Shown here piece by piece: positions 8,086-42,381 of a stretch of 64,000 nucleotides of DNA. The notes beneath the pieces were generated by a model. It did no database searches, had not been told where the DNA came from, and worked only from the letters and a program-made list of their open reading frames with translations. A program made the position numbers and the translations under genes. This DNA comes from an uncultured Candidatus Saccharibacteria bacterium. GTDB lineage: Bacteria > Patescibacteriota > Minisyncoccia > Phycocordibacterales > PALSA-1337. Where the stretch lies: contig CAZHHB010000001.1 of NCBI GenBank assembly GCA_964532285.1, forward strand, positions 895-64,894. Direction: 5' to 3'. The stretch's first letter is position 1. The number at the start of each line of letters is the position of its first letter.

Positions 8086-9360
8086 TTAGTATTCCCTCAT
8101 CGCCACTTGTGCGTCAACTTTCTTGAGTAGATCCAAAGCCACAGAAACTACGATGAGAAGTGCTGTACCACCTATAGCTAGACTTTGATTGGAGGTAAAT
8201 GCCTGCATTGCCAGAGGAAGCACCGCGATAATACCTAGGAATAAAGCACCCACCAATGTTATACGAGTGACGATATTGCCGATATGAGCTTGCGTATGTT
8301 CACCTGGACGAACACCTGGGATGAAAGCGCCAGAACGCTGGAGATTTTCGGAGATCATCTTTGGATCGAAAGTGATGGCTGTATAGAAATAAGTAAATAT
8401 AACCACCAAGACAAAGTATGCTGTGCCGTATACCCATTGATTATTGAAGAATGTCGTAAAGGATGAAGCTACACTAGCTATGGTTGGATAATTTGTGAGA
8501 TGTGATAGGAAATTGGAAATTATCTGAGGAAATAGAAGAATGGATAGAGCAAAGATTATTGGGATAACACCTGCTTGATTCAAGCGCAAAGGCAGATATG
8601 TCGAAGCTCCTCCGTAGACTTTGTTGCCACGAACTTGCTTGGCATAAGTCACAGGGACAGAACGCTCGGCTTCGGTCACATATACCACGCCCGCGATAAC
8701 TGCTAGAGCTACTACCAAAGCGCCGATGTACAAAGGTATGTTTTCTGGACTGTAACCAGCGATGAGCTGTGTGACTTTCGTAGGGAGACTAGAGACTATA
8801 CCGGCGAAGATGATGAGTGACACCCCATTTCCTATGCCAAATTCTGAGATGAGTTCACCGACCCACATGAGGAGGATTGAACCCGCAGTAACCACAATGA
8901 CTGCCGTTGTAAAATCAAAAGTGGAAAGACTAGGCAAGACATTTTGAGATTGGAGTAGTATCAAAAAACCTATAGCTTGAATCACAGCCAACGGCGCACC
9001 TATCAAACGAGAATATTGCGAGAGCTTCATGCGGCCAGCATCGCCTTCTTCGTGCATCAGATTCTTCCACTTTGGGAACATCATAGTCAAAAGCTGAATG
9101 ATGATGGAGGCTGTGATAAAGGGACCGACACCAAGCATCACGATAGATAGATTGGACAAGCCACCGCCAGAGAAAATATTCAAAAATCCAAAAAATTGAC
9201 TGGAGGAGAGGAGTTTCGCCAAACTTGCAGCATCAACTCCTGGTATAGGGATAGCAGCCAAGAGGCGGAAAACAACTAATGCAAGAACAGTGAAACCAAG
9301 CCTCTTTCTGAGGATTGGATCCCTAAGCGCCAGTTGTATTTTGGCCCACAGATTTTGCAT
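8086..9360 (-). CDS. secY: Preprotein translocase subunit SecY
   Basis: 424 aa, 10 TM helices, SecY signature segments. Confidence 0.92.
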   Translation of the reverse strand: MQNLWAKIQLALRDPILRKRLGFTVLALVVFRLLAAIPIPGVDAASLAKLLSSSQFFGFLNIFSGGGLSNLSIVMLGVGPFITASIIIQLLTMMFPKWKNLMHEEGDAGRMKLSQYSRLIGAPLAVIQAIGFLILLQSQNVLPSLSTFDFTTAVIVVTAGSILLMWVGELISEFGIGNGVSLIIFAGIVSSLPTKVTQLIAGYSPENIPLYIGALVVALAVIAGVVYVTEAERSVPVTYAKQVRGNKVYGGASTYLPLRLNQAGVIPIIFALSILLFPQIISNFLSHLTNYPTIASVASSFTTFFNNQWVYGTAYFVLVVIFTYFYTAITFDPKMISENLQRSGAFIPGVRPGEHTQAHIGNIVTRITLVGALFLGIIAVLPLAMQAFTSNQSLAIGGTALLIVVSVALDLLKKVDAQVAMREY

Positions 9361-9364
9361 ATTT

Positions 9365-10024
9365 TTATATATTACTCTTTGTCTCCTTCTTCGTCGAGGA
9401 TTTGGCTTCTTTTGGGACTTTTGCTTCTTTTACAGCTTTGACATCCTTGTTAACCGATTTCTCTTTGGAAAATTTCTTCTCTTTCACTGGAAGTGCCTCT
9501 TTTGCTTCAGCAGCCTTCTCTGTAGCAGGTTTCTTTACCTTTGGAACCTTCACAACAATCTTCTGTGTAGTTATAGGAACGACGATAGCGATAGTACCAC
9601 CAGCCTTTTCTATTTTATCCTTTGCTGAACCAGAGACGAAACAACCTGAGACCTTGAGAGCTTTCGTAATCTCACCATCACCCAAAATCTTCACCTTTGG
9701 AGTCTTGCCGGACTGAGTAGAGATAACACCGCTCTCAACCAAGATAGTTGGAGTTACAGAAGCACCAGCATCAAAAGATTTCTCTAAGATTGAAAGATTG
9801 ATAATAGCTGGTTTGGTCTGAATAGATTTGTTGGAATTTTTGCCACGACCGCGCAACTTTGGAAGTTTCTTGATGATATCCCTCCATTCTGGACGGCGTT
9901 TGTTACCAGCACGAGCTGATTGACCCTTGCCTCCACGACCAGCAGTCTTGCCGCGCTTACCACCACGTGCCACGATCATACGCTTCGTATTCGGATATTT
10001 TCTTTTCAGTTGATTGGTTTGCAT
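9365..10024 (-). CDS. rplO: 50S ribosomal protein L15 with a Lys/Ala-rich C-terminal extension
   Basis: N-terminus MQTNQLKRKYPNTKRMIVARGGKRGKTAGRGGKGQ is L15-like. The 219-aa length reflects a ~70-aa KxxKE-rich tail. Confidence 0.85.
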   Translation of the reverse strand: MQTNQLKRKYPNTKRMIVARGGKRGKTAGRGGKGQSARAGNKRRPEWRDIIKKLPKLRGRGKNSNKSIQTKPAIINLSILEKSFDAGASVTPTILVESGVISTQSGKTPKVKILGDGEITKALKVSGCFVSGSAKDKIEKAGGTIAIVVPITTQKIVVKVPKVKKPATEKAAEAKEALPVKEKKFSKEKSVNKDVKAVKEAKVPKEAKSSTKKETKSNI

Positions 10025-10066
10025 GATGTTAAGTTAAAAGTTGAAAGTAAAAAGTTAAAAGTAAGA

Positions 10067-10855
10067 TTATGCGGCTTTTTCTTTGTTAGCAGGATTCAGC
10101 ATCTTTCGAGACACCTTACTCAATTTTTTCAAAGCCTCAATAGTAGCCTTGGCATTGTTCAGACGGTTCTTGCTACCAGAAAGGAATTTGGCACAGACAT
10201 CCTTGATACCACAAAGCTCAATGACTGCTCTGGCGGAACTTCCAGCGACCACTCCGCGACCACGAGCTGGGAAGATCTTGATCATAGCACTGCCATATTT
10301 GCCTTCTACGGCATGAGGAATCACCATCTGAGGTGAGAGAGGAACTTTGATGAGATTCTTCTTGGCTTCACGAGTGGCCTTCTCTACTGAACCAGCAGTA
10401 TCTCCACCCTTGCCCAAGCCCACTCCGACGCGACCTTTGTGATCTCCAGCCACAACAGCGACACTGAAATTCATCCTTCTACCTCCAGAAGTCACACGGG
10501 TCACACGGCGAATATCTATAATCTTGGAATCAAACTCTGGTTTGACGCGTTCACGGTTATCACTGCGTCCACCTCTACTGCCACCCCTTCCCTGAGGGCC
10601 ACTGGCATTACCCTGACTTCGTCCGCCCCTCCTAGCTGGATCACCGCGCATCTTGCGTCCTGGTGTAAATTTGTTGGCACTAGGAGCCGTGGCTGGGATA
10701 ACAGTGTCCAAAGCTTCGACAACCACAGCGTCAGAGACACCATCAGAGATGATAGCTCCGACATCGACTCCCGTTGCGGGGATCTTCGTATCCAAAACAG
10801 CCTCACTGTTCAAGGTCTTGTCTTCGTTATTTGTTTTTATTTCTTTTGCATTCAT
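10067..10855 (-). CDS. rpsE: 30S ribosomal protein S5 with an N-terminal extension
   Basis: S5 core RVTRVTSGGRRMNFSVAVVAGDHKGRVGVGLGK. Only 42 bp separate it from rplO, so there is no room for the L30 gene. Confidence 0.88.
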   Translation of the reverse strand: MNAKEIKTNNEDKTLNSEAVLDTKIPATGVDVGAIISDGVSDAVVVEALDTVIPATAPSANKFTPGRKMRGDPARRGGRSQGNASGPQGRGGSRGGRSDNRERVKPEFDSKIIDIRRVTRVTSGGRRMNFSVAVVAGDHKGRVGVGLGKGGDTAGSVEKATREAKKNLIKVPLSPQMVIPHAVEGKYGSAMIKIFPARGRGVVAGSSARAVIELCGIKDVCAKFLSGSKNRLNNAKATIEALKKLSKVSRKMLNPANKEKAA

Positions 10856-10869
10856 ATTATAAAATTAAA

Positions 10870-11220
10870 TTAGAATTCCAAACCTCCTTCACGGGCGGCA
10901 TCAGCTACGACTTTGATCTTGCCTGTATACATATAACCTGCCCTATCAAAGACAACTTTCTTGATCTTAGCTTCTTTGGCTTTCTTTGCGATTTCCAAAC
11001 CAACCTCCTTGGCTCTATCCACTGGAGTCTTGCCTTTGGTTTTGCGGGAATCAGCTGAAACAAGAGTATGTGCCTTGTCATCGTTGATGATCTGAGCATA
11101 GATGAACTTGTGAGACTTGAAGATTGCAAGACGAGGTCTCTCTTCTGTTCCATGGATCTTGGCACGAACGCGAGCTTTGCGTCTGGCGAAGATTTTGTGT
11201 TGTATCTGTAATTTATTCAT
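10870..11220 (-). CDS. rplR: 50S ribosomal protein L18
   Basis: 116 aa. [33 protein letters not shown]. Confidence 0.9.
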
Positions 11221-11247
11221 TGTATTTGTATTGAATGTCCCAGAGGA

Positions 11248-11781
11248 TTATGCGGCCTTCTTACCTTGCTTCCTGCGGATGACTTCATCAGAATATCGGA
11301 CACCCTTGCCTAGATACGGCTCTGGTTTCTTCAAGGCTCGGACCTGTGCGGCGAATTGTCCAACCTTCTCGCAGTCAATACCTGAGATAGTAACTGTGTT
11401 TTTCTCTGAAGTAACCTTGAGATCGTCTGGTATAGGGACAGATATAGGGTGAGAGAATCCTAGAGCCAGGGCCAATTCCTTACCTTTTACATCAGCTTTG
11501 TAACCAATACCTTCAATGATCAATTTCTTTTCGTATGCCTTGTGAACTCCGGCAATCATATTTTTTATATGAGAAGCGTATGTTCCCCACAAAGCCTTGG
11601 TCTCTATACTCTCAAAAGCTGGGGTCAAAGTGATGGAGTCCTTTTCTATCAAAATATTGATATTTGGCTTAAAATATTTCGTCAAAGTACCAAGAGGGCC
11701 CTTGATAGTCATAATGCCTCCCGAATAACTGGCTTCGGTTTTGGCTGGGAGTACGATAGGTTTTTTTGCAATTCTTGACAT
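11248..11781 (-). CDS. rplF: 50S ribosomal protein L6
   Basis: 177 aa. MSRIAKKPIVLP...ITLTP, two L6 repeats. Confidence 0.9.
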   Translation of the reverse strand: MSRIAKKPIVLPAKTEASYSGGIMTIKGPLGTLTKYFKPNINILIEKDSITLTPAFESIETKALWGTYASHIKNMIAGVHKAYEKKLIIEGIGYKADVKGKELALALGFSHPISVPIPDDLKVTSEKNTVTISGIDCEKVGQFAAQVRALKKPEPYLGKGVRYSDEVIRRKQGKKAA

Positions 11782-11798
11782 AGTATTTATTTGAATGA

Positions 11799-12191
11799 TT
11801 ACCAGATTCTGAAAAGAACCTCGCCTCCGACCTTTAGTTTCTTTGCTTCGTGATCCACGAGCACACCCTTTGGTGTAGAAAGGAATGAATTACCAAAACC
11901 ACTCCTGAATGTACGAATGTCATTGTATTTCTGGTACATGCGTCGGGAAGGCTTGGAAATGCGCTCTGCCCCATGGATACGAGGCTCATTATCTAAATAA
12001 GAAAGACCAACCATAATCTCTGATACAAAAGACTTGCCTTTTTTCTCAACACTTGAGATAAAGCCAGCTTTCTTCAAAGCATACGCGACATCTTCGGCAA
12101 ACTTAGAATATCTGATAGAAACAATATCCTTGCCGGCATCACTGCCGTTTTTGAGTCTGATTATGAGGTCTGAAATAGGGTCAGTTAACAT
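11799..12191 (-). CDS. rpsH: 30S ribosomal protein S8
   Basis: MLTDPISDLIIRLKNG start. The track ORF extends upstream to 12275, overlapping rpsN, so the start is trimmed to the conserved Met. Confidence 0.88.
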   Translation of the reverse strand: MLTDPISDLIIRLKNGSDAGKDIVSIRYSKFAEDVAYALKKAGFISSVEKKGKSFVSEIMVGLSYLDNEPRIHGAERISKPSRRMYQKYNDIRTFRSGFGNSFLSTPKGVLVDHEAKKLKVGGEVLFRIW

Positions 12192-12205
12192 GGAATTGAA
12201 ATATA

Positions 12206-12391
12206 TTACCAGGATGATTTCTTGATGCCTGGGATAGCGCCTTCGTTTGCGAACTCTCTGAAACAGATACGGCAAAGGTCAAAATCTCTCATGTAGCCAT
12301 GCTTGCGTCCACAACGGAAGCAACGCCTAACGACGCGCGACTTGAATTTCGGCTTCTTCTGTGACCTAGCTATAACGGATGTTTTTGCCAT
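12206..12391 (-). CDS. rpsN: 30S ribosomal protein S14 type Z (zinc-binding)
   Basis: 61 aa. CxxC...CxxC ([24 protein letters not shown]). Confidence 0.9.
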
Positions 12392-12510
12392 ATTGCGATT
12401 TTCTTCAAAGAAAAGTGGATTGGTTAGCTTGTTCTCTGGGTTTTATCCCGAAGGACCGTGCTTCCAATCGCTATTCTCTTGCTATTCCCTTACTTTTTAA
12501 GGTATTTAAG

Positions 12511-12539
12511 ATGATAGCAGATAGGGGTGAGGGAGTCAA
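12511..12539 (-). promoter_or_regulatory. Sigma70-like promoter TTGACT-N17-TATCAT driving the rpsN-to-map fragment
   Basis: Read on the minus strand, the -35 is TTGACT (complement of 12534-12539), followed by a 17-nt spacer and the -10 TATCAT (complement of 12511-12516). It lies about 120 nt upstream of the rpsN start. Confidence 0.4.
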
Positions 12540-12662: not shown

Positions 12663-13811
12663 TTATTTATCCTCGAATAGATTTACATATTCACGATGAA
12701 TATAAAGCGACGGTTTTACGCCTTCGCCCTTTCGAAGCAACTTGAGGACACCTACTTCTATCAGTTTATCAATCAATTTTATAGTCCCCTGTCTAGTATA
12801 TCCCGTCCATTCTTCAATATGTGCCGTTGATGCGACAGGACTCTTGTATAGATTCTGTAACACACGAGCTGCTGTATCTGTGGGGTTAGTAGCTATTCTA
12901 GAAATTTTTTCGAGATCTTTATCACGAAGTTTTGTGATCTTCTTGGAGACCTCAATGGCTTGCTGTGCGGTATCAATAACCGCATCTAGGAAGAAATCTA
13001 CCCATGGCAAAATATCCCCGATATGATATCCGGCAAGTCTCTGATAATATATTTTCTGGTGTCTTTTAAAATACGATGAAAGAAACAGGGTCGGAAGCTC
13101 CAAGAATTTATAGTGAATAAGATAAAATGTAATCAGTAGACGACCAGTACGTCCATTACCATCAAGAAACGGGTGCACTGTCTCAAATTGAGCATGGAGA
13201 AGTCCCGCGTCAATAATCGGATGAATATATGGTGAGTGAATAAATCCCTCGACATCGTTTAGTGCTTCTGGCAATTCTTCATATGTTGGCAGGACAAAGC
13301 TTGCATTACTAGGAGCTGTTCCTCCAATATAATTCTGGCTCTTTCTAAATTCGCCAGGATCTGAAAAATGCGTAGCACGAGCCCCCTTCATAAGTTCTTT
13401 ATGGAGTTCACGAATAAAGCGTAAAGAAAAAGGAAAATTATCCTCTTTTAATCTCTTTAATCCATAATGTAACGCCGCAATATAGTGTGAGATATCATCC
13501 GCATCAGTATCACTTGGGTTTGCGGGGTCAGCAACATATTCAAAGGCTTCAACCATTGTTGCTTTTGTACCTTCGATCTGTGAAGAGGATGTTGCATCTT
13601 TTGTAATATATGAGGATATAAAATAATCTACATCCGGCAATAAAAGTGTGATGCCAGAAAGTTTCCCCAAGAGAAATTGAGCTTCATTTGCCTTTTGAAG
13701 CATCTTCTTATCCCCTTCAATCAAAGTCCTTATTTTTGCAGGAAAAGGAAGCAGTGACAGATATTCATAACCGTTTACATGTTTCCTTGTTATTCCTATT
13801 TGTATTTTCAT
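12663..13811 (-). CDS. Fic family protein (AMPylation/filamentation domain)
   Basis: Canonical Fic motif HPFLDGNGRTGRLL. 382 aa with an N-terminal helical region and a C-terminal winged-helix-like tail. Inserted in the spc cluster. Confidence 0.85.
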   Translation of the reverse strand: MKIQIGITRKHVNGYEYLSLLPFPAKIRTLIEGDKKMLQKANEAQFLLGKLSGITLLLPDVDYFISSYITKDATSSSQIEGTKATMVEAFEYVADPANPSDTDADDISHYIAALHYGLKRLKEDNFPFSLRFIRELHKELMKGARATHFSDPGEFRKSQNYIGGTAPSNASFVLPTYEELPEALNDVEGFIHSPYIHPIIDAGLLHAQFETVHPFLDGNGRTGRLLITFYLIHYKFLELPTLFLSSYFKRHQKIYYQRLAGYHIGDILPWVDFFLDAVIDTAQQAIEVSKKITKLRDKDLEKISRIATNPTDTAARVLQNLYKSPVASTAHIEEWTGYTRQGTIKLIDKLIEVGVLKLLRKGEGVKPSLYIHREYVNLFEDK

Positions 13812-14144
13812 GCATCTGTGGTGTTTATACTATTTTCATAGTTTAAACCATTATATACTTTTAGTTTAAGGTAGTCAACTAGCTTAAACTAAGCCTAAAA
13901 CGGCTTATTTATCTTTAATCCCTCGCAAAACTCAGATATTTTGAGCTGCAACACAACCTCATTTTCTTTAATTCATTGAGTTTCTCCGATACTACCAGAT
14001 GTTGACTACGCCCCACAATTCTGATTCTAGAGCCTTTTTTCTTCTTCAGACGTGTAGCACTCCCGTTCTGGTAATGATTCCATCATATCCTAAAGCTTTC
14101 TGATTTATAGGATGAACTGATGACCGCTAGAAAGCAAAATTTCT

Positions 14145-15248
14145 CTATTCTTCTAACTTGACGAATTTGCCATCTTTGAAAATTTTTACATCACTTATCA
14201 GCGTTCTTGATCCCGTCTCGTCGAAAGTTATTTCGCCCGATATCCCTTTGAGGGAGAAGTTCTTGCTTTCAAGTACACTCTTCCATTCTGATTTATTCTT
14301 TTTTGCAAGCACTCTCGAAATAATCTGGATCGAATCGTAACCATAGACACCGAGGAAATTTGGTTCTATTCCATAAAGCTGTTTGTATCGCTCAACATAG
14401 TTTTTTTCGGTCGTGTCGGCAATCATAGTTGAGATGCAATTATTGAACACAGTTTTATCGGCAACCTTTTTCAGAAAATCTCCGATGGTAAGTTCAATAT
14501 TTCCGTCGCATATCATCTGTGGTCTCTTGGATCCGCCCTGTTTGGCAATTTCATTAATAAGTTTACTTCCCTGTTCAATCGGCAAAAATACCGTATATGC
14601 ACTCACTCCTTCATGGAGCATTTTTGTTACCTCTGTCCTCATATCTGAATTCGGAGCAATTGGGACTTCAATGTAGTCTTTATTACCTAATCCTGCTATA
14701 AACTGTGCCTTGTTTGGTGCCGCCAACGCCCAATCGTTTGCATATACAATCGCTATTTTGCCATACCTTCCTGAGACAGCCTTACCTAGATCTTTGAATA
14801 AAGCGGTAGCCCATGGAATTACTTCGAAGATATTATCTTTCTCGATCGAAGCTTCATTTCCAATCGCTAACATCAATTCATCAGTCTTATTTATTATAGG
14901 CTTAATTGCCTCAAGCGTAGGACTGTCGAGTCCGATAACAATATCAACATCATCAAATGTCTGCAGTTTATTATATGCGGACAAGACTTTTGCGGTATCA
15001 AATCCTCCATCCTCATATATAATCTCAATGTTCTTGTCTTCCAAATCATTGAAGCTCATCTGTATTGAGTTCTTTACAGCCTCTCCAAATGCGGCTCCAT
15101 ATTCTCCAGAAAGAGGTAATATTACCCCAACCCTGATCTTCCCATTTGATTCAGCCTCATTTCTATCGCCCTTAACGGCAAGACCAATTACAACAACCAC
15201 AACCAAGACAGCCACTGTCAACCAAAGTATTTTTGTGTTTTTATTCAT
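14145..15248 (-). CDS. Membrane-anchored periplasmic-binding-protein type I (Leu/Ile/Val-binding-protein-like ABC substrate-binding protein)
   Basis: N-terminal TM/signal anchor. PBP1 fold pattern (GVILPLSG...IVIG...YANDWA...GYDS). No cognate permease nearby. Confidence 0.6.
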   Translation of the reverse strand: MNKNTKILWLTVAVLVVVVVIGLAVKGDRNEAESNGKIRVGVILPLSGEYGAAFGEAVKNSIQMSFNDLEDKNIEIIYEDGGFDTAKVLSAYNKLQTFDDVDIVIGLDSPTLEAIKPIINKTDELMLAIGNEASIEKDNIFEVIPWATALFKDLGKAVSGRYGKIAIVYANDWALAAPNKAQFIAGLGNKDYIEVPIAPNSDMRTEVTKMLHEGVSAYTVFLPIEQGSKLINEIAKQGGSKRPQMICDGNIELTIGDFLKKVADKTVFNNCISTMIADTTEKNYVERYKQLYGIEPNFLGVYGYDSIQIISRVLAKKNKSEWKSVLESKNFSLKGISGEITFDETGSRTLISDVKIFKDGKFVKLEE

Positions 15249-15371
15249 ATACTTTTACTTTTATGTTTAATGCCGTCATTATAGAACATAATTGTAATAA
15301 TATGAAAAAAATGTTTATTTACTTCCTCTTTTAAATTACCCCCTTATTTACAAGACTTATTTCGCATTTAC

Positions 15372-15400
15372 TTGACTAATTTTTCGACAAAATATAGTAT
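15372..15400 (+). promoter_or_regulatory. Promoter TTGACT-N17-TAGTAT giving a leaderless transcript for the TrmB-like gene
   Basis: The -10 ends 7 nt before the ATG at 15408. The upstream TTG used by the ORF track is itself the -35 hexamer. Confidence 0.45.
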
Positions 15401-15407
15401 CATTAAA

Positions 15408-16235
15408 ATGAATATTACCAAGAAGTCCTCTGTTATCATCGGACTGCGAAAGAACGAAGTGGCTGTTTTGAAAGCGTTATCATCAGATGAATTGGTGATA
15501 TCTGACATAGCAATCTCAACACGGATTCCTCGCACTTCCCTTTATTATATGTTACCGAAATTGGAGAAGCGTGGTTTTGTGAAAAGAGTTAAGCGGAATA
15601 AGAAAGTCTTATGGAAAAAAGCAGATGATAAAGACATATATGCTATCCACGAAAGTGTACTGAGAGGATTCAAAAGCAAGGAAAAAGACAGCGTAACCAA
15701 AGAAGTCTCGGACTCAACACAGGTCACTTTTCATTATGGAAACAAAAATGTATTAGCTGTTTTTGATGAAATATCCGATATGTTACCTGAGAGTCGGGTG
15801 TATGGTATCCAACCAGAATTATCTATCGTGGGAGGAGTTGAAAGAAATCCACTTGATGCGATTATTAATTTCAATAAAAAGATTAAATCCAAAAAGATCA
15901 TCGTGGAGGGTATAATTCACGAAAAAGGAACCGACTCGATGGCACAAACTCTCTCGAAAGAAGAAAAAATAAAATTACTAGATAGTTTTAATGATCGCTC
16001 GGCAGATACCACCAAGTTACCTGAAAAGATACTCGAGAAGACAAAAGCGGAAATTTATCTCTATGAAGACAAGGTGGCAATCGTCAACTGGTATGAGGAA
16101 TTCGCAGTGATCATTAAAAATAAAGATGTGTTCGAATTGATAAAAGAAATGTTTAACTCAACCAAGTATTTGTCGGAAAGATATGACCAAAATAGAAAGA
16201 TCTCAATGAGACTTAGGGATTTCGAAGGTAAATAG
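15408..16235 (+). CDS. TrmB-like winged-helix transcriptional regulator with a C-terminal domain of unknown function
   Basis: N-terminal wHTH pattern (LKALSSDELVISDIAISTRIPRTSLYYMLPKLEKRGFVKRV). Start taken as ATG 15408 (MNITKK). Confidence 0.5.
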   Translation: MNITKKSSVIIGLRKNEVAVLKALSSDELVISDIAISTRIPRTSLYYMLPKLEKRGFVKRVKRNKKVLWKKADDKDIYAIHESVLRGFKSKEKDSVTKEVSDSTQVTFHYGNKNVLAVFDEISDMLPESRVYGIQPELSIVGGVERNPLDAIINFNKKIKSKKIIVEGIIHEKGTDSMAQTLSKEEKIKLLDSFNDRSADTTKLPEKILEKTKAEIYLYEDKVAIVNWYEEFAVIIKNKDVFELIKEMFNSTKYLSERYDQNRKISMRLRDFEGK

Positions 16236-19161: not shown

Positions 19162-19162
19162 G

Positions 19163-34087: not shown

Positions 34088-34088
34088 A

Positions 34089-34517: not shown

Positions 34518-35705
34518 CTACTTAACGATCTTGGTGACGACTCCTGCACCTACTGTCTTACCACCCTCACGGACGGCGAAGTGCATTTTCTCTTCCAGAG
34601 CAACTGGAGCGACAAGCTTAACTTTGAAGGTAACGGTATCACCCGGCATAACCATCTCTACTTTCTCAGGAAGAGTTACTTCACCAGTAACATCTGTCGT
34701 ACGGATATAGAACTGAGGCTTGTATCCTGTGAAGAAAGGAGTGTGACGACCGCCCTCTTCTTTCTTCAAAACATAGATCTCAGACTCAAATTCTGTATGA
34801 GGTTTGACTGAGCCAGTCTTGGCCAATACTTGTCCGCGAGATACATCATCCTTGGCTGTACCACGGAGGAGTAATCCAGCATTATCACCAGCCATTCCCT
34901 CTTTGAGAGACTTATTGAACATTTCAATACCAGTAATAGTAGTCTTGGTTGTGTCTTTGAAGCCGACAATCTCAACTTCGTCACCAACCTTGATTATTCC
35001 GCGCTCAATACGGCCGGTAACAACAGTTCCACGACCTTCAATAGAGAAGATGTCTTCTATTGGCATAAGGAATGGCTTGTCGGTCTCACGAACTGGTGTT
35101 GGAATATAAGCATCCAAAGCGGCGAGGAGTTCGTCAATCTTCTTTGACCACTCTGCATCACCGTTCAAAGCATTTGAAGCTGAGCCACGAATAACTGGAA
35201 CATTCTTGCCGTCAAATTGATTCTTGGTCAAGAGTTCACGCACTTCCTCTTCAACAAGATCAATAAGATCAGTCTCTGGTACGAGATCACACTTGTTCAA
35301 GAAGATAACTATCTTTGGAACACCTACCTGGCGAGCCAAGAGTACATGCTCGCGAGTCTGTGGCATAACACCATCAGTAGCGGAGACGACAAGGATAGCT
35401 CCGTCCATCTGGGCGGCACCGGTGATCATGTTTTTGATGAAGTCGGCGTGTCCTGGACAGTCAATGTGAGCGTAGTGACGAGTCGGAGACTCATATTCTA
35501 CGTGTGCTAGAGAAATAGTAACTGTTTTCGTTGCATCACGAACAGTTCCTCCCTTTGTAATGTCTGCGTAAGCCTTGATATTGGCCAAGCCTTTCTTGGA
35601 CTGAACAGCCAAGATAGCGGCGGTCAATGTGGACTTCCCGTGGTCAATGTGGCCGATTGTACCGACATTAACATGCGGCTTTGTACGATTGAATTCTGCT
35701 GCCAT
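34518..35705 (-). CDS. tuf: Elongation factor Tu
   Basis: 395 aa. [20 protein letters not shown]. Confidence 0.97.
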
Positions 35706-35981
35706 ATGATTATTGATTTAGTGCCCCGAGCTTTGAGAACATTTTCACTTGGGTGAGTACGTGTGACGCCCAAATGACAATGCTCAAAGCGAGGGGATAA
35801 ATTATTAATAGTTTATAAAACGCCTCTTAGGCGCGTACCGGTTAGGGTAACATAATGTGGAAACAGAAGTCAAATTTCGTTCAATATCCCCTATTTTTTA
35901 CGATGGACATCCATGGGGGGGTGTTATGATGATGTTTAATGTAATTTGGTAATTATCATTATTATTTCTAATTAAAATTAA

Positions 35982-38900
35982 ATGAAAAAGTATATTGTCT
36001 CATTCGCAATTCCATTTATCATATTCGCAGCTGTCGCTGTTCTCGCACAGCCTACGACTACCCAAGCGGCCTCAATCAGAGAACTTATAAATCTATTGAT
36101 TGGTCGTGGTGTCATCTCTTCAGATAAGGTAGAACAGGCTACCAAGATAGCAACAGAGTTGGATACAGTACCACCACAGAGCGGCGAGAGTGGACCCTGT
36201 TATGTATTCAGCACCAATCTTGTTGTGGGCAGTGAAGGACCAGATGTTGTTGCGTTACAGACTTTTTTGATAAGCAATGGCTATAACATTCCAGCTATTT
36301 CCTCTGGGCGGCAAGCAAAGGGTTATTTTGGCGGACAGACAAAGATGGCTGTTATGAATTATCAAGCGGCGAATAATCTTATCAGTACTGGTTTTGTCGA
36401 TGTATTAACCAGAACCAGCCTAAACAGAGCATCATGCGGACTAGAATACACCAATCAATCCGGCATCACTATCCTGGCTCCAAAAGGAGACGTGCAGGTT
36501 GGTTTTCAATATAAACTCATATGGAAAGATACCCGTCTAACTCTAGGAAAAGGGGTGTCACCTATATATGTTATAGGTATAGCTGGAAGTAATGGGAAGG
36601 ATATGATTTCTGAAAGCGTCCCGGCATCAACATATTGTCAGAGTGATACTTGTTATTCTGGTTGGATTCCAACAACTGTTTCAACAAACAACCAAATCAC
36701 AATCTACGATGTTGCAAATGATCCAAACGGGAACATTGTCGGAAGAAGTTACTACTTCAACATTGTAGCTTCAACCACCACCACCAAACCATCCATCACT
36801 GTTACAAGTCCGAATGGCGGGGAATCTTTATCAGAAGGCCAGAACTACAGAATCTCATGGGAATCAATGAATCTTAGTGGTTTAAATATAAGTCTCGATT
36901 TGGTTGACTACTCTGGCAGAGTTATCAGAAACATTGCGAATAACATAACGAACACAGGTTCTTACAACTGGTCTGTTCCTCAGGATTTGGTTTCCGAAAC
37001 AGCTGGTACATTCAAAATTCTAGTTTCTTCATTTGACAAAGGTCCTTCAGCACAAGATTACAGTGATTCATACTTTAGAATTAGTTCTTCAGGTGGTACC
37101 CCGCCCTCTTCCGGTGCCTCTGTCACTGCTTCACTAGTCTTTGCGGGTGAAGATAAGGTTGGTTTGTGGAATAATTTCGGTCCAGGAGTTGGTAATGGCA
37201 ATAGGAACCCAAATGATTGGAACTGGTCGGCTGTCTTGAATCTCTCATCAGAAAAGACGATCTCAAGAATAAGCATAATTCATCCTACTGCTGGAGAAGC
37301 ATGGTCAACCGGATATTCAAGATACACAAATGATGGAACTGACTTATTGGGTCGTGTAGAACATCCGTATCCGCTTGTAGTAAGACTGCCAGATGGAGAC
37401 AAAGACATAACTGCTTATGATCAACTCGCAGTGAGATATCCTGCTGGAAGATATGAGATCAAACTCTACGGTCAACCTGAAACAACCAGGTTCTACGGAG
37501 GTAAAATTATCGTTGAATTTAGTGACGGAACTTCTGCTACGGGTGTTATTCCAGCATCAAGTGTCACACAGTCAGGTAGCACCATCGTAACTCCTCCGAC
37601 AATCACCACACCTTCTATTACAGTCACAAGTCCAAATGGAGGTGAGAGATACACGGCTGGACAACAAATACGAATAAATTGGTCATCAAATAATATACCA
37701 AGTTCTAATTATATGAGTGTTACAGTGCGTGGTTTTGGATCATTTACAAATATCGGAGAAGACGGATTGCAACATCAAGTAAGTTATAAGGATTTTTCTG
37801 TAGGAGGAGATGTCCTTAATACTGGTAGTACCGTAATAACTCTTCCGGTAACTATTCCAGCAGAGGCTTCATATACTTTACAGATTAAGACAGTAGTAAA
37901 TGGTACTATTTTGGACGATTGGTCGAATCGCTATTTCACCATCACCTCTTCCCAAACCGTCATCAATCCAACCGTCACCGTCTTGAGTCCAAATGGAGGT
38001 GAGGTATGGCAAACTGGCAATACACAAACAATCCGTTGGTCATCGGGTGGATTTGATGGAAATGTATTTGTAAGTATATATAATACTAACGGCGTTGCCT
38101 GCAATATTGGAACTGTTCCAGCATCAACTGGACAATATTCTTTTGTATTATCAAGTAAAGTTAATACCTGCACAATAATTCCAGGTCAATATAAGATTGT
38201 CATAAATAGACAGTCTAATACTGGCTTTGATTTTGGTGTTGAAGACTTCAGTAATTCTTACTTCACCATCTCCTCTCCTCAAACCACCCCTTCCCCAACT
38301 CCTACCCCAACTCCTTCAGTACAAACAATCACAATCCTAAAACCAAATGGTGGTGAAAGTGTTGTCTCTGGTCAAACAATGAATATTGCGTGGTCAGCCT
38401 CTCTCCCATCTGCCACAACTATTGATAACATCTCTCTTTCATTGATTTCTAGTAGTGGTGCGACTTACCCACTCACAGTAGAGAAAAGTTCAATGTTCAC
38501 TTCTGGATTCAATGGTAATTACAGCAACGAAGGCAGGACTACCATCCTGGCAATGACCATTCCATCATCAATTCCTGCTGGGCAATACAGACTGAGTGTG
38601 AAATGTAATTCCTACTGCGGTACCAATGACATCAGTGACTCATATTTCAATGTCCTTGCCCCCGCCGCCAAACCAACGCTTCAAGTCTCAACATCAATCA
38701 ATGGTCAAACATTCTCAGTTGGTCAGAATATAAATGTTACATGGACTAGTGCAAATCTGTCAGCAACTGAACCGATCACGATCTCCTTCTCAAATGCAGA
38801 CAATCAGACTATAGCCTACAACATCAGCACAACCAACAGTGGTTTCTATAACTGGACTATTCCTTCGGGCGTAGTACCAGGTAAATATAGGGTCCAGGTG

Positions 38901-39026
38901 AGTTGCAAGAATTGTTACTCTACCACAGGATCAGCCGTCTACTCATGGGGTGACACATTCACCATCACAGCCGCTTCCGGACAGACATCCAATGCTTGGG
39001 AAGCTTTCATGAAGATGTTTAGGTAA
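35982..39026 (+). CDS. Large secreted cell-surface protein: signal peptide, a peptidoglycan-binding-like domain, then five or more ~100-aa repeats each starting (I/V)T(V/I)xSPNGGE...W
   Basis: Signal peptide MKKYIVSFAIPFIIFAAVAVLAQPTTTQA. PG-binding-like GPDVVALQTFLISNGY. Repeats at about aa 270, 540, 660, 780 and 900. Inserted between tuf and fusA on the opposite strand. Confidence 0.7.
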   Translation: MKKYIVSFAIPFIIFAAVAVLAQPTTTQAASIRELINLLIGRGVISSDKVEQATKIATELDTVPPQSGESGPCYVFSTNLVVGSEGPDVVALQTFLISNGYNIPAISSGRQAKGYFGGQTKMAVMNYQAANNLISTGFVDVLTRTSLNRASCGLEYTNQSGITILAPKGDVQVGFQYKLIWKDTRLTLGKGVSPIYVIGIAGSNGKDMISESVPASTYCQSDTCYSGWIPTTVSTNNQITIYDVANDPNGNIVGRSYYFNIVASTTTTKPSITVTSPNGGESLSEGQNYRISWESMNLSGLNISLDLVDYSGRVIRNIANNITNTGSYNWSVPQDLVSETAGTFKILVSSFDKGPSAQDYSDSYFRISSSGGTPPSSGASVTASLVFAGEDKVGLWNNFGPGVGNGNRNPNDWNWSAVLNLSSEKTISRISIIHPTAGEAWSTGYSRYTNDGTDLLGRVEHPYPLVVRLPDGDKDITAYDQLAVRYPAGRYEIKLYGQPETTRFYGGKIIVEFSDGTSATGVIPASSVTQSGSTIVTPPTITTPSITVTSPNGGERYTAGQQIRINWSSNNIPSSNYMSVTVRGFGSFTNIGEDGLQHQVSYKDFSVGGDVLNTGSTVITLPVTIPAEASYTLQIKTVVNGTILDDWSNRYFTITSSQTVINPTVTVLSPNGGEVWQTGNTQTIRWSSGGFDGNVFVSIYNTNGVACNIGTVPASTGQYSFVLSSKVNTCTIIPGQYKIVINRQSNTGFDFGVEDFSNSYFTISSPQTTPSPTPTPTPSVQTITILKPNGGESVVSGQTMNIAWSASLPSATTIDNISLSLISSSGATYPLTVEKSSMFTSGFNGNYSNEGRTTILAMTIPSSIPAGQYRLSVKCNSYCGTNDISDSYFNVLAPAAKPTLQVSTSINGQTFSVGQNINVTWTSANLSATEPITISFSNADNQTIAYNISTTNSGFYNWTIPSGVVPGKYRVQVSCKNCYSTTGSAVYSWGDTFTITAASGQTSNAWEAFMKMFR

Positions 39027-39060: not shown

Positions 39061-39095
39061 AAAAACCCTGAAACTGTATCAGGGCTTTTTCGTGG
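39061..39095 (+). terminator. Intrinsic terminator of the surface-protein gene. It is effectively bidirectional: CCCTGAAACTGTATCAGGG flanked by an A-run and a T-run.
   Basis: A 6-bp stem (CCCTGA/TCAGGG) with loop AACTGTA, preceded by AAAAA and followed by CTTTTT. Confidence 0.6.
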
Positions 39096-39105: not shown

Positions 39106-39185
39106 TCATTTTACTGATACCAGTAAAATGGTCTCCCATGAAACCAAAACTAATTTGATCATTTTGCCGATATCGGCAAAATGAT
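39106..39185. repeat. Tandem hairpin repeats H3 (CATTTTACTG-atac-CAGTAAAATG) and H4 (ATCATTTTGCCGA-ta-TCGGCAAAATGAT) of the CATTTT...AAAATG family, located between the convergent surface-protein and fusA 3' ends
   Basis: H3 at 39106-39132 and H4 at 39158-39185. The stem base is conserved and the stem tops are variable and compensated. Confidence 0.7.
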
Positions 39186-39186: not shown

Positions 39187-41331
39187 TTACTTCCTCTTTT
39201 CTTTAATTTCTTCCGCTACACTCGCTGGCACTACTTCATAGTGATCAAATTCCATCATGGCACTTCCCTGACCTGATGTCATGGAACGCAACTGTGTGGT
39301 ATAACCGAACATTTCTGACAACGGAACTTTCGCAATAATAGAAACATTCTGACCTTTTGGATTACTGCCTTCTATGAGACCGCGCTTGGAAGCGATGGAG
39401 CCATTGATATCACCGATATATTTTTCAGGACAAACCACCTCTAGTTTCATTATAGGTTCCAGAATAACTGGCTTGGCACGCTTAGCGGCATCCTGGAAAG
39501 CTTGTGAAGCAGCGATCTTGTAGGCGATTTCCGAAGAGTCCACATCGTGATATGAACCGAATGTAAGCTCGCAGGAAATATTGACCATCTTGTATCCAGC
39601 GAGAATACCTCGATCCATCGCCTCATGTACACCCTTTTCAACAGCTGGGATGAATTCATTTGGAATAACACCTCCCTTGATAGAGTTTATGAATTCAAAA
39701 TCATCATAACGCTTGGTAGTTTTTGGAATCTTTTCCCCTTCTGGCCATGGTTCCATAGGTTTCAAAGTCAGACGGACGTGACCGTATTGACCCTTACCTC
39801 CTGTCTGCTTGATGTATTTATTTTCTGCTTCAGCTGTACCCTTGATTGTCTCTCTGTACGCTACTTGTGGTTCACCGACATTTGCCTCCACACTGAATTC
39901 TCGCTTCATGCGATCAACCATGATCTCTAGGTGCAATTCACCCATTCCGGAGATGATAGTTTCGCCCGTCTCTTGATTGGAAGAGATGCGGAAGGTAGGA
40001 TCTTCATTACCGAGTTTGCGGAGGGCCATACCCATCTTCTCCTGGTCAGCCTTGGTCTTTGGTTCAATACGCAACGAAACCACTGGCTCCATGAATTTGA
40101 TGACTTCTAACACTATAGGATTCTCTTCGTCGCAGAATGTATTTGAAGTCAGTGCATCCTTGAGTCCGACAGCTGCGGCGATCTCTCCAGCGAAGACTTT
40201 CTTCACTTCTTCGCGTTTGTCTGCTTGCAGACGAACGATACGGCCCAAGCGCTCCTTCTTACCTGTACTTGAGTTGTATATATAAGTACCAGCTTCTATA
40301 GAACCTGAATAGACTCGGAAGAATGTTAATTGACCGACGAATGGATCATTTTGAAGTTTGAAAGCGAGAGCGGCAAAAGGTTCCTCGTCGGAAGAATGAC
40401 GAAGTACTTCTTCACCAGTGTTCGGATTGATACCTTTGACTGGCGGTATGTCTAATGGGGATGGTAGATAGTCCACAACAGCATCCAACACCAACTGCAC
40501 GCCGATATTCTTCAGAGCTGAACCAGTGAAAACTGGGAACATGGCGTTTGTTAGAACCGCCTTGCGGATAATGACCTTGAGCTCACTGACGGGGATCTCC
40601 TTGCCTTCCAGATAACGGGCCATAGCACCGTCATCATGCTCAACGATTTTCTCTATCAATTCTGCATGATATTTCTTGGCATCTTCGAGGAGTTCTGCAG
40701 GGATTTCTTTCTCAATTATCTTATTACCCATTTCCCCTTCGAAATAGTAAGCCTTCATCTTCAATAGATCTACAACACCGATATGATCACCTTCGGTACC
40801 GATAGGCATCTGGAAACGGACAGCGTTTTTGTTCAAACGCTCCAAAATAGATTTGTATGACTTCTCAAAAGAGGCGCCCATGCGGTCCATCTTGTTGATG
40901 AAACACAAGCGTGGAACCTTACCATCATCGGCATAACGCCAGTTGGTCTCTGACTGTGGCTCTACCCCGGCCACACCATCAAACACCACAACAGCTCCAT
41001 CCAAAACACGCAGAGAACGCTTCACCTCTACAGTGAAGTCTATGTGTCCTGGTGTATCGATAATATTGAAACGCACCATTTTCGACTTGTCCGTCGGAGG
41101 TAAATAAGTCGGATTCCAAAAACAAGTGATAGCGGCGGCGGTGATAGTGATGCCACGCTCCCTCTCCTGCTCCATCCAATCGGTTACTGTATCACCTTCA
41201 TGCACCTCACCGATCTTGTGAGTCATGCCCGTGTAATACAAGATACGCTCGGATGTTGTAGTTTTTCCAGCGTCAATGTGAGCGATAATTCCGAAGTTAC
41301 GAACTAGATCTAATGGGTAGTCCCGTTTCAT
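39187..41331 (-). CDS. fusA: Elongation factor G
   Basis: 714 aa. AHIDAGKTT, DTPGHIDF, EF-G domains II to V. Confidence 0.97.
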   Translation of the reverse strand: MKRDYPLDLVRNFGIIAHIDAGKTTTSERILYYTGMTHKIGEVHEGDTVTDWMEQERERGITITAAAITCFWNPTYLPPTDKSKMVRFNIIDTPGHIDFTVEVKRSLRVLDGAVVVFDGVAGVEPQSETNWRYADDGKVPRLCFINKMDRMGASFEKSYKSILERLNKNAVRFQMPIGTEGDHIGVVDLLKMKAYYFEGEMGNKIIEKEIPAELLEDAKKYHAELIEKIVEHDDGAMARYLEGKEIPVSELKVIIRKAVLTNAMFPVFTGSALKNIGVQLVLDAVVDYLPSPLDIPPVKGINPNTGEEVLRHSSDEEPFAALAFKLQNDPFVGQLTFFRVYSGSIEAGTYIYNSSTGKKERLGRIVRLQADKREEVKKVFAGEIAAAVGLKDALTSNTFCDEENPIVLEVIKFMEPVVSLRIEPKTKADQEKMGMALRKLGNEDPTFRISSNQETGETIISGMGELHLEIMVDRMKREFSVEANVGEPQVAYRETIKGTAEAENKYIKQTGGKGQYGHVRLTLKPMEPWPEGEKIPKTTKRYDDFEFINSIKGGVIPNEFIPAVEKGVHEAMDRGILAGYKMVNISCELTFGSYHDVDSSEIAYKIAASQAFQDAAKRAKPVILEPIMKLEVVCPEKYIGDINGSIASKRGLIEGSNPKGQNVSIIAKVPLSEMFGYTTQLRSMTSGQGSAMMEFDHYEVVPASVAEEIKEKRK

Positions 41332-41453
41332 AAATAAATTAAATTGTTAATTATTAAATAAATTATAGAACCAAAATTTACTAAGATACATATCCCTCGA
41401 CTCGTTCCTCGCCAAAGCTCGGAACTCGCTCGGGATAATTTCGCAAAGCGAAA

Positions 41454-41924
41454 TTACCAAGCAAAGTGTGCGAAGGCTTTGTTTGCTTCTGCCATCTTGT
41501 GGACATTCTCACGCTTTTTGACTGCTTCACCTTCATTCTTGGAAGCGGCAATGATCTCATCTGCAAGCTTCATGTGTATAGGAGCCCCCTTCTTGGAACG
41601 AGCGGCGTCTATGATCCATTTCATAGATAGAGCCTGTTTGCGTTCTGGGCGGACTTCACGAGGAACTTGATAGTTGGCACCACCAACGCGTCGTGAACGA
41701 ACTTCCATAGCTGGAGTGGTATTCTTGAGAGCGGTTTCGAAAACTTCTAGAGGATTCTCTACCTTTGCCTTTTCTTTGATAGCATTCATACAATCAGCCA
41801 CGATAGAACGCGCGACATTTTTCTTGCCTGATTCCATTATGTAATTTGTGAATTTCGAAAGCTTCAATGAATCATAGTTCACATCTGGCTTCAATTCTCT
41901 TTTTATGTTTAATTTTCTTCGCAT
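41454..41924 (-). CDS. rpsG: 30S ribosomal protein S7
   Basis: 156 aa. S7 signature segments. Confidence 0.92.
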
Positions 41925-41961
41925 GTTTTTATAGTGAGGTTTTCACCGAACTATTAGTTTA

Positions 41962-42381
41962 TTAGACAGTTGCCGCCTTCGGCCTCTTGTTACCATATTG
42001 GCTACGACCTTTCCTGCGAGCTTCTACACCGGCACAGTCCAATACTCCACGAACTATGGAATAACGGAGGCCTACATCTTTGACACGACCACCTCTAAGC
42101 AAAACAACTGAGTGTTCCTGCAGATTATGCCCCATCCCTGGAACATATGCGGTGACTTCAACACCGTTGGTCAAACGAACACGGGCGATCTTTCTGATGG
42201 CGGAGTTTGGTTTCTTGGGAGTTTTGGTCGTGACCTTTACGCATACACCGCGTTTGAATGGTGCCGGAAAGAAGATCGGCCTATTCTTAATAGAATTGAA
42301 AGTACGCGTCAAGGCGATTGACTTTGACTTGCTCTTGAAACGCTTCCTGTGGGTTTTTGTAAGCTGATTTATTGTTGGCAT
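41962..42381 (-). CDS. rpsL: 30S ribosomal protein S12 with an N-terminal basic extension
   Basis: ...[28 protein letters not shown]...[19 protein letters not shown]. Confidence 0.92.

Follow-up and report, generated by a model that had tools for sequence, protein, structure and literature searches.

We analysed the str-S10-spc ribosomal protein gene cluster in a 64,000-nucleotide stretch of DNA (hereafter the window; contig CAZHHB010000001.1 of assembly GCA_964532285.1), where blocks of unrelated accessory genes, here called cargo, lie between the ribosomal genes. Pfam scans of every long open reading frame (ORF) between 6.5 and 42.4 kb of the window give the minus-strand order rpsL, rpsG, fusA, tuf, rpsJ, rplC, rplD, rplW, rplB, rpsS, rplV, rpsC, rplP, rpmC, rpsQ, rplN, rplX, rplE, rpsN, rpsH, rplF, rplR, rpsE, rplO, secY, adk, map, which is the colinear str-S10-spc order on a single strand. 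Four gaps interrupt it, at fusA|tuf (3481 bp), rplC|rplD (8486 bp), rplB|rpsS (3054 bp) and rplE|rpsN (3878 bp), and the four cargo blocks make up 18.9 kb of a 34.3-kb span, or 55%. This gene order and these four insertion sites had been proposed in an initial annotation of the locus, and each gene named there was confirmed by Pfam.

The gaps leave five runs of ribosomal genes, all on the minus strand. Module 1 (39187-42381) holds rpsL (41962-42381), rpsG (41454-41924) and fusA (39187-41331). Module 2a (33482-35705) holds tuf (34518-35705), rpsJ (34089-34466, 125 aa) and rplC (33482-34087), and module 2b (22967-24995) holds rplD (24312-24995), rplW (23830-24294, 154 aa) and rplB (22967-23821). 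Module 3 (16270-19912) runs from rpsS (19562-19912) through rplV, rpsC, rplP, rpmC, rpsQ, rplN and rplX to rplE (16270-16830), and module 4 (6572-12391) from rpsN (12206-12391, 61 aa) through rpsH, rplF, rplR, rpsE (10067-10855, 262 aa), rplO (9365-10024, 219 aa) and secY (8086-9360) to adk and map. Independent gene calls place the likeliest starts of rplX at 17097 (72 aa), of rpsH at 12191 (130 aa) and of the cargo gene TrmB at 15408 (275 aa).

The breaks are not confined to canonical operon boundaries: the four gaps of 3.1-8.5 kb all fall inside the canonical str, S10 and spc operons, whereas the canonical boundaries themselves are tight in the window (tuf|rpsJ 51 bp, rpsQ|rplN 9 bp). Neither of the usual outer neighbours is present. 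There is no rpoBC upstream of rpsL, where genes for a tRNA-binding-domain protein and an AdoMet_dc-domain protein stand instead, and no infA-rpsM-rpsK-rpsD-rpoA-rplQ after map, where ndk and a beta-CASP RNase gene are found; in the window, str is thus not preceded by rpoBC, nor spc followed by the alpha operon. The best matches of the L4 protein besides itself are 77-80% identical, and the named ones belong to Paceibacterota, Taylorbacteria or Minisyncoccia. By this similarity the host, a bacterium of tiny genome, is placed in Parcubacteria/Paceibacteria near 'Taylorbacteria'. Many related metagenome-assembled genomes are titled 'uncultured Candidatus Saccharibacteria', although L4 similarity groups them with Parcubacteria/Paceibacteria, and these labels, which look unreliable, were not used.

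To place the gaps in context we surveyed 26 junctions in 166 related loci (labelled L###), comprising 80 species-representative genomes, the 6 closest relatives obtained by exact-protein look-up and 80 metagenome contigs. Ribosomal genes were located by BLAST, and a junction was called open when more than 400 bp separated its two genes. Openness is sharply bimodal. High values were found at fusA|tuf (open in 61 of 69 loci), rplB|rpsS (63 of 95) and rplE|rpsN (36 of 70), with rpsG|fusA (17 of 43) and rpsJ|rplC (37 of 113) following; at the other end stand rplC|rplD (6 of 148), tuf|rpsJ (3 of 108), secY|adk (2 of 12) and rplP|rpmC (1 of 64), and the remaining 17 junctions are never open, rpsQ|rplN (0 of 82) among them. 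The canonical str|S10 boundary (tuf|rpsJ) and S10|spc boundary (rpsQ|rplN) are therefore closed in the relatives too. Three of the four sites in the window are clade-wide, being open in 51-88% of relatives and common to loci with less than 50% L4 identity. The fourth, rplC|rplD, is open in the closest clade, in 4 of the 10 loci with at least 70% L4 identity, with cargo also immediately before rplD in L084 and L096. As long as only the first 80 loci were considered, the rplC|rplD insert had seemed unique to the window, a view we dropped when closer relatives proved to carry cargo there. The single open rplP|rpmC junction belongs to L088, in which a 972-aa surface protein (MBG_3/HYR/Ig-like; 16694-19612) lies between genes that adjoin in the other 63 loci. 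The initial annotation had called insertions in this cluster rare and the locus a hotspot of genome flux. Rarity is true of Gammaproteobacteria and Bacilli (PMC8046335), not of these relatives, where the same junctions are commonly open; flux is borne out by cargo that varies among relatives of 77-82% L4 identity, and the hotspot is a property of the clade rather than of this locus.

In the window, every insert stops a short way upstream of a strong promoter-like site of the extended -10 type, which precedes tuf, rplD, rpsS or rpsN. A strict pattern, TTGACW-N14-16-TGNTANNNT, occurs five times in the 64 kb against 0.33 expected, and four of the five matches lie directly upstream of rpsN, rpsS, rplD and tuf on the coding strand. 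With a TTGACA-like -35, a spacer of 16-18 nt, a TGn, a -10 of the form TAnnnT and a gene downstream, these sites have the makeup of sigma-70-type extended -10 promoters, and their consensus at the starts of the modules after the first is TTGACT, ~17 nt, TGnTAnnnT. The candidate tuf promoter (P_tuf and its hairpin, 35812-35873, minus strand as are all of these sites) reads TTGACT-N18-TACCCT with an upstream TG at 35844-35873, followed by the hairpin CGCCTAAGAGGCG (35821-35833) and a U-tract. P_rplD (25035-25084 with its hairpin) reads TTGACT-N17-TAGTAT with TG at 25056-25084, followed by the hairpin GCTCTTAGGGGC (25035-25046) and a U-tract. P_rpsS (19940-20030 in all) reads TTGACT-N17-TAACAT with TG at 20002-20030 and is followed by two hairpin-plus-U-tract elements (19981-19994 and 19940-19956). 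P_rpsN (12392-12539 in all) reads TTGACT-N17-TATCAT with TG at 12511-12539 and is followed by a 119-nt structured leader (12392-12510). For rpsL, the promoter scan gave a site of the form TTGACA-18-TAATAT at 42718-42747.

The same association is found across the 166 loci. A looser version of the pattern occurs 20-350 nt upstream of tuf in 66 of 95 cases, of rpsS in 69 of 95 and of rpsN in 46 of 70, and elsewhere before rpsL in 7 of 37, rplD in 15 of 146 and rplC in 8 of 125, with 0-3 matches at other ribosomal genes; 363 matches lie on the strand of the ribosomal genes and 132 on the opposite strand. P_rpsS is also present where there is no cargo, in the 84-bp rplB|rpsS gap of L002. P_rplD stands ~32-33 nt before rplD, measured from the end of the -10 hexamer to the start codon, in L084-L086 and L088, and at a greater distance upstream of the gene in L087, L089 and L002; over 32 nt, the copy in the window matches P_rpsS at 84% identity. 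The insertion sites are not arbitrary, each lying just upstream of a conserved internal promoter-like site.

Most of these sites share a further feature. A short GC-rich hairpin and a T-tract come right after the -10 hexamer at rpsS (53 of 69), tuf (36 of 66), rpsN (15 of 46) and rplD (6 of 15), compared with 7 of 272 other promoter-like matches and 1-2% of shuffled sequence. The distance from the -10 to the beginning of the hairpin is 6-9 nt in 101 of 130 cases, which puts the hairpin at approximately the predicted start of the transcript. The stems differ wholly between lineages with the pairing kept (AGCTC/GAGCT, CCCGC/GCGGG, GCGCC/GGCGC, AACTGCA/TGCAGTT). We scored an explicit 5-bp helix on 47 rpsS leaders that had been aligned by sequence only and without selection. 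The helix was paired in 76% of cells, slid controls gave 25-51%, and 0 of 500 shuffles reached 76%. RNAalifold, applied to 47 rpsS leaders in a plain MAFFT alignment, predicted no structure, which we attribute to stem and loop lengths too variable for alignment. Within the window the combination of promoter, hairpin and T-tract occurs four times, at tuf, rplD and rpsS and in a probable false match inside pgk. Across loci 41-82% identical to the window in L4, the unit of extended -10, hairpin and U-tract marks where the modules headed by tuf, rpsS, rpsN and, within a single clade, rplD begin.

In regard to function, a hairpin with an immediate U-tract has the form of an intrinsic terminator or attenuator. 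Its position does not correspond to that of a terminator at the 3' end of a transcription unit, nor is it a leader with alternative structures, no alternative antiterminator pairing having been identified. Because the hairpin is kept beside divergent upstream neighbours (the first pilin-like gene, pil1, and the surface protein gene described below), it cannot be only a terminator of read-through. The most likely readings, as far as sequence patterns can suggest them, are a promoter-proximal attenuator or a 5'-terminal stabilising hairpin. As an attenuator, it could have its read-through set by the supply of nucleotide (UTP) or by a ribosomal protein. The leader of the E. coli S10 operon is subject to L4-mediated attenuation, with the attenuator situated ~140 nt along the extensive structured leader that precedes rpsJ. 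Like that system, the element places a terminator-like hairpin and U-tract between a ribosomal protein promoter and the first gene, and in the clade of the window it precedes rplD, the gene for L4; unlike it, the hairpin is of 4-7 bp, begins at about +1, stands before four modules and has no match to an Rfam leader. As a stabiliser, it could act as a cap-like 5' hairpin protecting the mRNA. Stem-loops at the 5' terminus stabilise mRNAs such as E. coli ompA and B. subtilis aprE, and a hairpin that begins only a few nucleotides from the predicted 5' end has the same geometry, which protects from RNases that depend on the 5' end. Those stabilisers, however, have no conserved U-tract and are not specific to ribosomal protein operons, and the 5' ends considered here are predicted. 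Whichever mode may apply, we tentatively raise the possibility, at somewhat less than even odds, that the extended -10, the hairpin at about +1 and the U-tract form an undescribed control element specific to ribosomal protein genes of Paceibacteria, one that would make the cluster modular and open it to foreign genes between the modules. Rfam contains no family that matches the hairpin or a ribosomal leader here. At its gathering threshold, a search of the whole window returned the tmRNA only, and at E <= 1 merely spurious microRNA-hairpin matches, at a palindrome upstream of rpsL and at the rpsG-fusA boundary (41413-41467).

Other leaders in the cluster are also structured. The rpsN leader (12392-12510) is conserved in L084, L085, L087 and L092, so that an invariant helix, GATTGG...CCAATC plus AGC/GCU, can be followed in five genomes around a covarying apical stem; it has no Rfam match and could be an autoregulatory site for S8 or S14, both encoded in the module. 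The tuf leader (35706-35843) contains a long-range helix, CCCCTCGCTTTGAGCA...TGTTCTCAAAGCTCGGGG. Immediately before the ribosome-binding site of rpsL lies the AT-rich palindrome just mentioned (42393-42452, 28-nt arms), for which spurious microRNA matches were the sole Rfam result.

The cargo itself is varied. At fusA|tuf lies a single plus-strand gene (35982-39026), convergent with fusA and divergent from tuf, for a 1014-aa secreted protein with PG_binding_1, Kre9_KNH and Ig-like domains (SURF1014); terminator-like hairpins were found beside it at 39066-39084 (+) and 39129-39146 (-). At rplC|rplD the insert, entirely on the minus strand, opens with a MacAB-like trio (29980-33459) that begins 22 bp past rplC: an HlyD-type membrane fusion protein (MFP, 31933-33459), an ABC ATPase (31217-31933) and a MacB-type permease (29980-31215). 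In E. coli MacB, the ATPase and the permease are one polypeptide. The trio resembles MacAB efflux systems in having an HlyD-family adaptor, an ABC ATPase and a MacB_PCD plus FtsX permease in one same-strand run, and differs from them in that ATPase and permease are separate genes, no outer-membrane partner is evident and the whole lies inside a ribosomal cluster. Next comes a purD cassette (28359-30036) consisting of copies of a 56-nt repeat, a hairpin, a promoter-like site (29876-29903), purD (28527-29834) and two further hairpins, followed by genes (25190-28264) for an EamA transporter (27392-28264), a DKNYY protein (26012-27307) and a NYN protein (25190-25852).

At rplB|rpsS there are four plus-strand ORFs (20056-22821), divergent from rpsS and convergent with rplB, which the initial annotation had described as a four-gene pseudopilin operon. 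Three of them, of 160, 160 and 173 aa, are type IV pilin-like, with prepilin N-termini carrying a class III signal (G, F/M, E at +5, hydrophobic helix) that reads G|MTLVE in pil1, G|FSIIE in pil2 and G|FTLVE in pil3, and with N_methyl Pfam scores of 19.9 and 20.7 bits that fall just below the 21.2 cut-off; the fourth, a 429-aa ORF, lacks the E+5 residue. Genes pilC and pilB, of the type IV pilus, lie elsewhere in the window and could serve the pilin-like cargo genes. The rplE|rpsN insert (12663-16235) holds a TrmB-like regulator (15408-16235, +), a Peripla_BP_6 solute-binding protein (SBP; 14145-15248, -) and a Fic protein with Fic_N (12663-13811, -); the SBP and Fic genes have promoter-like sites of their own (15278-15306 and 13850-13878).

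In composition, which the initial annotation had proposed as a check, the cargo is mixed. The overall GC content is low in DKNYY (0.351, z = -2.3), NYN (0.353, z = -2.2) and TrmB (0.358, z = -2.1), and in Fic the third-position GC is low (GC3 0.303, z = -2.1); these four are among the strongest composition outliers of the 69 genes of the window (z about -2.1 to -2.4). The MacAB trio, purD, the pilin-like genes and the surface protein are native in composition.

A comparison of cargo among relatives indicates rapid turnover. Our homology set comprised 270 cargo ORFs of at least 90 aa, 255 from the first 80 loci and the 15 cargo proteins of the window, and 206 of the 270 had no homologue among the others. 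At least 48 and at least 62 Pfam families are represented in two sets of gaps, including surface proteins, pilins, efflux pumps, enzymes of nucleotide and amino-acid metabolism, toxin-antitoxin systems and histidine kinases. Genomes 77-82% identical to the window in L4 carry cargo unlike that of the window, and unlike each other's, at every junction, aside from a few shared exceptions. One exception is the MacAB trio, whose orthologues occupy the same rplC|rplD site in L084 and L086 (ABC 79-81%, MacB 81-83% and MFP 55-60% identity); because it is as similar as the flanking ribosomal proteins, vertical inheritance at that site is implied. Large PG_binding_1 proteins also occur at fusA|tuf in L085 and L088, and weaker homologues of SURF1014 there in L001, L002, L011 and L019; the surface proteins of the relatives are on the strand of the ribosomal genes, and the copy in the window is inverted. 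At rplB|rpsS, a 272-275-aa histidine kinase on the opposite strand adjoins rplB in L084, L086, L088 and L089, where the window has its pilin-like genes. The purD, EamA, DKNYY and NYN genes are missing from L084 and L086 and are thus later additions.

We read the cargo of the window as layered. Old residents are a large surface protein of the PG-binding class at fusA|tuf and, at rplC|rplD, the vertically inherited MacAB-like trio. The purD cassette, integrated where the MacB gene ends and with a perfect 56-bp duplication, arrived recently, as did four genes of low GC (DKNYY, NYN, TrmB and Fic).

Among more distant relatives, a prokaryotic diacylglycerol kinase of 130-190 aa, on the strand of the ribosomal genes, recurs at rplB|rpsS in nine loci (L007, L013, L017, L047, L048, L049, L056, L060 and L064). 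Lone nucleotide-biosynthesis genes also recur as cargo: purD in the window and, in relatives, SAICAR synthetase (2), AIR carboxylase, OMP decarboxylase (2), dihydroorotate dehydrogenase and phosphoribosyltransferases. Such organisms are generally thought to lack de novo nucleotide synthesis, and in that light nucleotide-gene cargo is odd.

We consider it probable that promoter-defined modules underlie both aspects of the locus, its long-lived permissive gaps and the fast turnover of their cargo. The cluster would then be a chain of five modules, headed by rpsL, tuf, rplD, rpsS and rpsN, each apparently with its own promoter, and would not consist of two or three long operons; in the modules of tuf, rplD and rpsS, the short GC-rich hairpin and U-tract begin practically at the predicted start of the transcript. 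Because each module would have its own restart, DNA between modules would not starve the downstream ribosomal genes, and the gaps could serve as tolerated landing sites. The gaps would be long-lived and their contents replaced quickly, with a few vertically inherited residents. The inferred parts of this reading are promoter activity of the motifs, an RNA-level role for the hairpin, and tolerance instead of selection as the cause of cargo build-up.

Several observations weigh against this reading. Promoter activity and hairpin function are predictions from sequence, and a generic scan of the whole region for sigma-70 promoters and terminators, used only to locate candidates, showed no enrichment (42 and 51 sigma-70 sites against 41.4 in shuffles). 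A true rplD promoter is found only where rplC|rplD is already open; there is none in L093, L094 and L171, and the hairpin-less pattern matches upstream of rplD in L001, L092 and L095 were judged spurious. Since the rplD promoter is confined to open loci, a promoter that came first cannot be told from cargo that came first and a promoter copied in later. Its 84% identity to P_rpsS suggests that P_rplD may be a copy of P_rpsS that rescued rplD-rplW-rplB after the cargo arrived. At rpsJ|rplC, one in three of the more distant relatives has an open junction, yet a recognisable promoter precedes rplC in only the 8 of 125 cases given above. In the survey itself, each collection scan covered the best 80 loci, and gap sizes were taken from the ends of BLAST alignments, which makes them too large by tens of bp. 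Finally, cargo is not indifferent to strand: 207 ORFs lie on the strand of the ribosomal genes and 99 on the opposite one (68% of 306), and this bias, together with the MacAB trio starting so close behind rplC, suggests that some cargo may be co-transcribed rather than insulated.

The strand bias is also a ground for an alternative in which cargo is recruited by selection, read-through from very strong ribosomal promoters giving it growth-coupled expression. The close spacing of the MacAB trio behind rplC and its retention in three genomes fit this idea, as do the diacylglycerol kinase at rplB|rpsS in nine loci and the recurrence of nucleotide-metabolism genes. Against it stand the large share of singletons in the cargo and the one third of cargo ORFs, including two of the four blocks in the window, that lie on the opposite strand. 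Each of the Fic, SBP and purD genes has its own promoter-like site, low-GC genes and toxin-antitoxin pairs resemble passengers, and the bias may mirror a replichore bias, genes in the window being mostly on the minus strand. We therefore regard recruitment as unlikely, although it is the strongest of the alternatives to promoter-defined modules with tolerated gaps.

Somewhat less likely still is an origin of the inserts as genomic islands or integrative mobile elements directed at specific sequences in the cluster. In its favour, the purD cassette is bracketed by a perfect 56-nt direct repeat (29981-30036 and 28359-28414), the former copy being the last 56 nt of the MacB permease gene. Such a repeat is what would be left by a single-crossover (Campbell-type) integration of circular DNA or by a duplicative insertion, and its perfection indicates that the event was recent. 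Around EamA-DKNYY there are in addition two direct copies of a ~55-nt palindromic element, the window has a Fic gene, toxin-antitoxin genes (RelB/YafQ, HigBA-like, HicA, PemK, PIN) lie in relatives' gaps, and four cargo genes deviate in GC. Yet the 15 cargo proteins of the window include no integrase, transposase or recombinase domain by Pfam, and for each of the two sets of relatives' gaps, the listed top 25 families by frequency contain neither a transposase nor an integrase. No tRNA gene is present as a target, the sole tmRNA lying 7 kb from the cluster; a repeat search of the window found no flanking repeats around the other cargo blocks, and the MacAB, pilin and surface-protein blocks are native in composition. 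A short motif, ATCTAGGTCGGAC, near two cargo ends was considered and rejected, its frequency being no higher than chance.

The ~55-nt element has features of its own. Its copies, at 25915-25970 and 28415-28473, consist of a 13-bp AT-rich palindrome, ACCATTTT...AAAATGGT, and then GGTyGAyyTrGGGTCTGGT, with no U-tract after the hairpin; the stem differences between them are compensatory, and the number of copies expected by chance is 0. A weaker relative of it lies past fusA, at 39107-39133. Between the second copy of the 56-bp repeat and the start of EamA there is also a near-perfect 44-bp palindrome (28310-28353) with 22-nt arms, 91% complementary, and no spacer.

That the interrupted order is ancient and fixed, with no ongoing flux, is very improbable and has largely been refuted already. 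Three gap positions are shared down to less than 50% L4 identity, the MacAB trio is common to the window, L084 and L086, and the histidine kinase stands beside rplB in four relatives; against these, cargo differs at every junction in genomes 77-82% identical in L4, the perfect repeat points to a recent event and the low-GC genes are missing from the closest relatives. The initial annotation had itself named an identical interrupted order in relatives as an outcome that would undo its reading, and in content the relatives do not have one, apart from the MacAB trio in two of them and the large PG-binding class at fusA|tuf. The closest available relatives are ~80% identical in L4, a distance at which younger events cannot be dated.

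The initial annotation had also raised the chance of a chimeric assembly, which we checked against Logan contigs that another assembler had built from runs ERR3094292 and ERR3094302. At 100% protein identity, independent contigs cover rpsJ-rplC-MFP-ABC-MacB, EamA-DKNYY-NYN-rplD-rplW-rplB-pil4..pil1-rpsS and, in a contig labelled L091, rpsS..rplE-TrmB-SBP-Fic-rpsH..rpsE, with the 61-aa rpsN between Fic and rpsH uncalled. These crossing contigs exclude chimerism for the rplE|rpsN and rplB|rpsS inserts and for the outer ends of the rplC|rplD insert. The Logan contigs end at both copies of the 56-bp repeat, leaving purD alone on a 1580-bp contig; MacB-repeat-purD-repeat-EamA is the sole path that uses all repeat edges, so that the placement of purD rests on the resolution of the repeat and is not independently spanned. 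For fusA-SURF1014-tuf no independent contig was found, exact-protein look-ups of rpsS and tuf returning no record. Although the source is a metagenome assembly and these two points lack a spanning contig, assembly or binning chimerism as the origin of the junctions is barely credible when contigs from two runs agree across the others and relatives are gapped at the same junctions.

The cluster also lacks rpmD, the gene for L30. Only 42 bp (10025-10066) separate rpsE from rplO, and tblastn of the whole window with three L30 sequences as queries gave a best E of 0.6, in agreement with the initial annotation on both the absence and the spacing. With uL30 missing and uS5 adjoining uL15, the window has the arrangement that marks the Candidate Phyla Radiation (CPR), and none of 48 related loci has space for L30 between rpsE and rplO. 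The annotation had ascribed the loss to many CPR lineages; it is indeed known, and Tsurumaki et al. 2022 (PMC9297842), citing Brown et al. 2015, gives uL30 loss and uS5-uL15 adjacency for all CPR. The loss here is thus correctly called and already published, and adds nothing new. We rejected a fusion of L30 into the long S5 N-terminus or L15 C-terminus, because the extensions are at the wrong gene ends and of low complexity and tblastn was negative.

Several ribosomal proteins of the window are long. S5, at 262 aa, has a 107-aa low-complexity N-terminal extension that is RGG-rich at its end; L15, at 219 aa, has a C-terminal tail of ~75 aa rich in lysine, alanine and glutamate; and L23 (rplW) has a 68-aa N-terminal extension. 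S19 and S10 are extended as well, the N-terminal extension of rpsJ being conserved, and gene calls in the closest relatives give similar lengths for S5 (232-254 aa) and L15 (173-206 aa). Outside the cluster, at 630-1519, 2727-3892, 46673-48103, 53679-56692 and 58830-60026, the window contains the tmRNA (tag AKSTVSPYFGQKDFAFALV) beside smpB; infC-rpmI-rplT (+); comEC; pilC and pilB; and nusA.

These findings fit into a broader picture of how ribosomal gene clusters come apart. In Gammaproteobacteria and Bacilli, 65% of cluster rearrangements fall between canonical operons, and spc and alpha are never separated (PMC8046335). As in those clusters, order within modules is colinear here, break-up is known to begin when a few genes at a time insert between transcription units, and the inserts are ordinary metabolic and transport genes rather than obvious mobile elements. 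Unlike those clusters, ours has its canonical boundaries closed and its open sites inside str, S10 and spc, and the alpha operon and rpoBC are not adjacent. In ribosome composition the window resembles CPR as described in PMC9297842, with uL30 absent, uS5 and uL15 adjacent and ribosomal protein lengths unlike those of non-CPR bacteria; the text of that paper contains 'operon' once and 'gene order' not at all. Our literature search found nothing specific on interrupted ribosomal clusters, internal promoters or promoter maps in CPR, and no transcript-level work in these organisms. What is new here is a variant in which long-lived, apparently promoter-delimited gaps lie inside what model bacteria keep as single operons, of which we found no description in the literature searched. 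The promoter-coupled hairpin is the newest lead of the analysis.

The ribosomal protein block is commonly treated as the most rearrangement-resistant stretch of a bacterial genome and as a syntenic marker set for uncultivated bacteria. Yet a large CPR class routinely opens this block at a few fixed junctions, with up to 8.5 kb of unrelated genes per gap, and this affects the extraction of marker blocks, contig-level taxonomy and contamination checks. The locus also offers a testable rule, that a conserved operon cluster can be broken at its internal promoters. If the promoter, hairpin and U-tract do form a control element, a P_rpsS cassette copied upstream of rplD would be the origin of a new module boundary and of a new hotspot in the clade of the window, and the element could be a first handle on the control of ribosome synthesis in these organisms.

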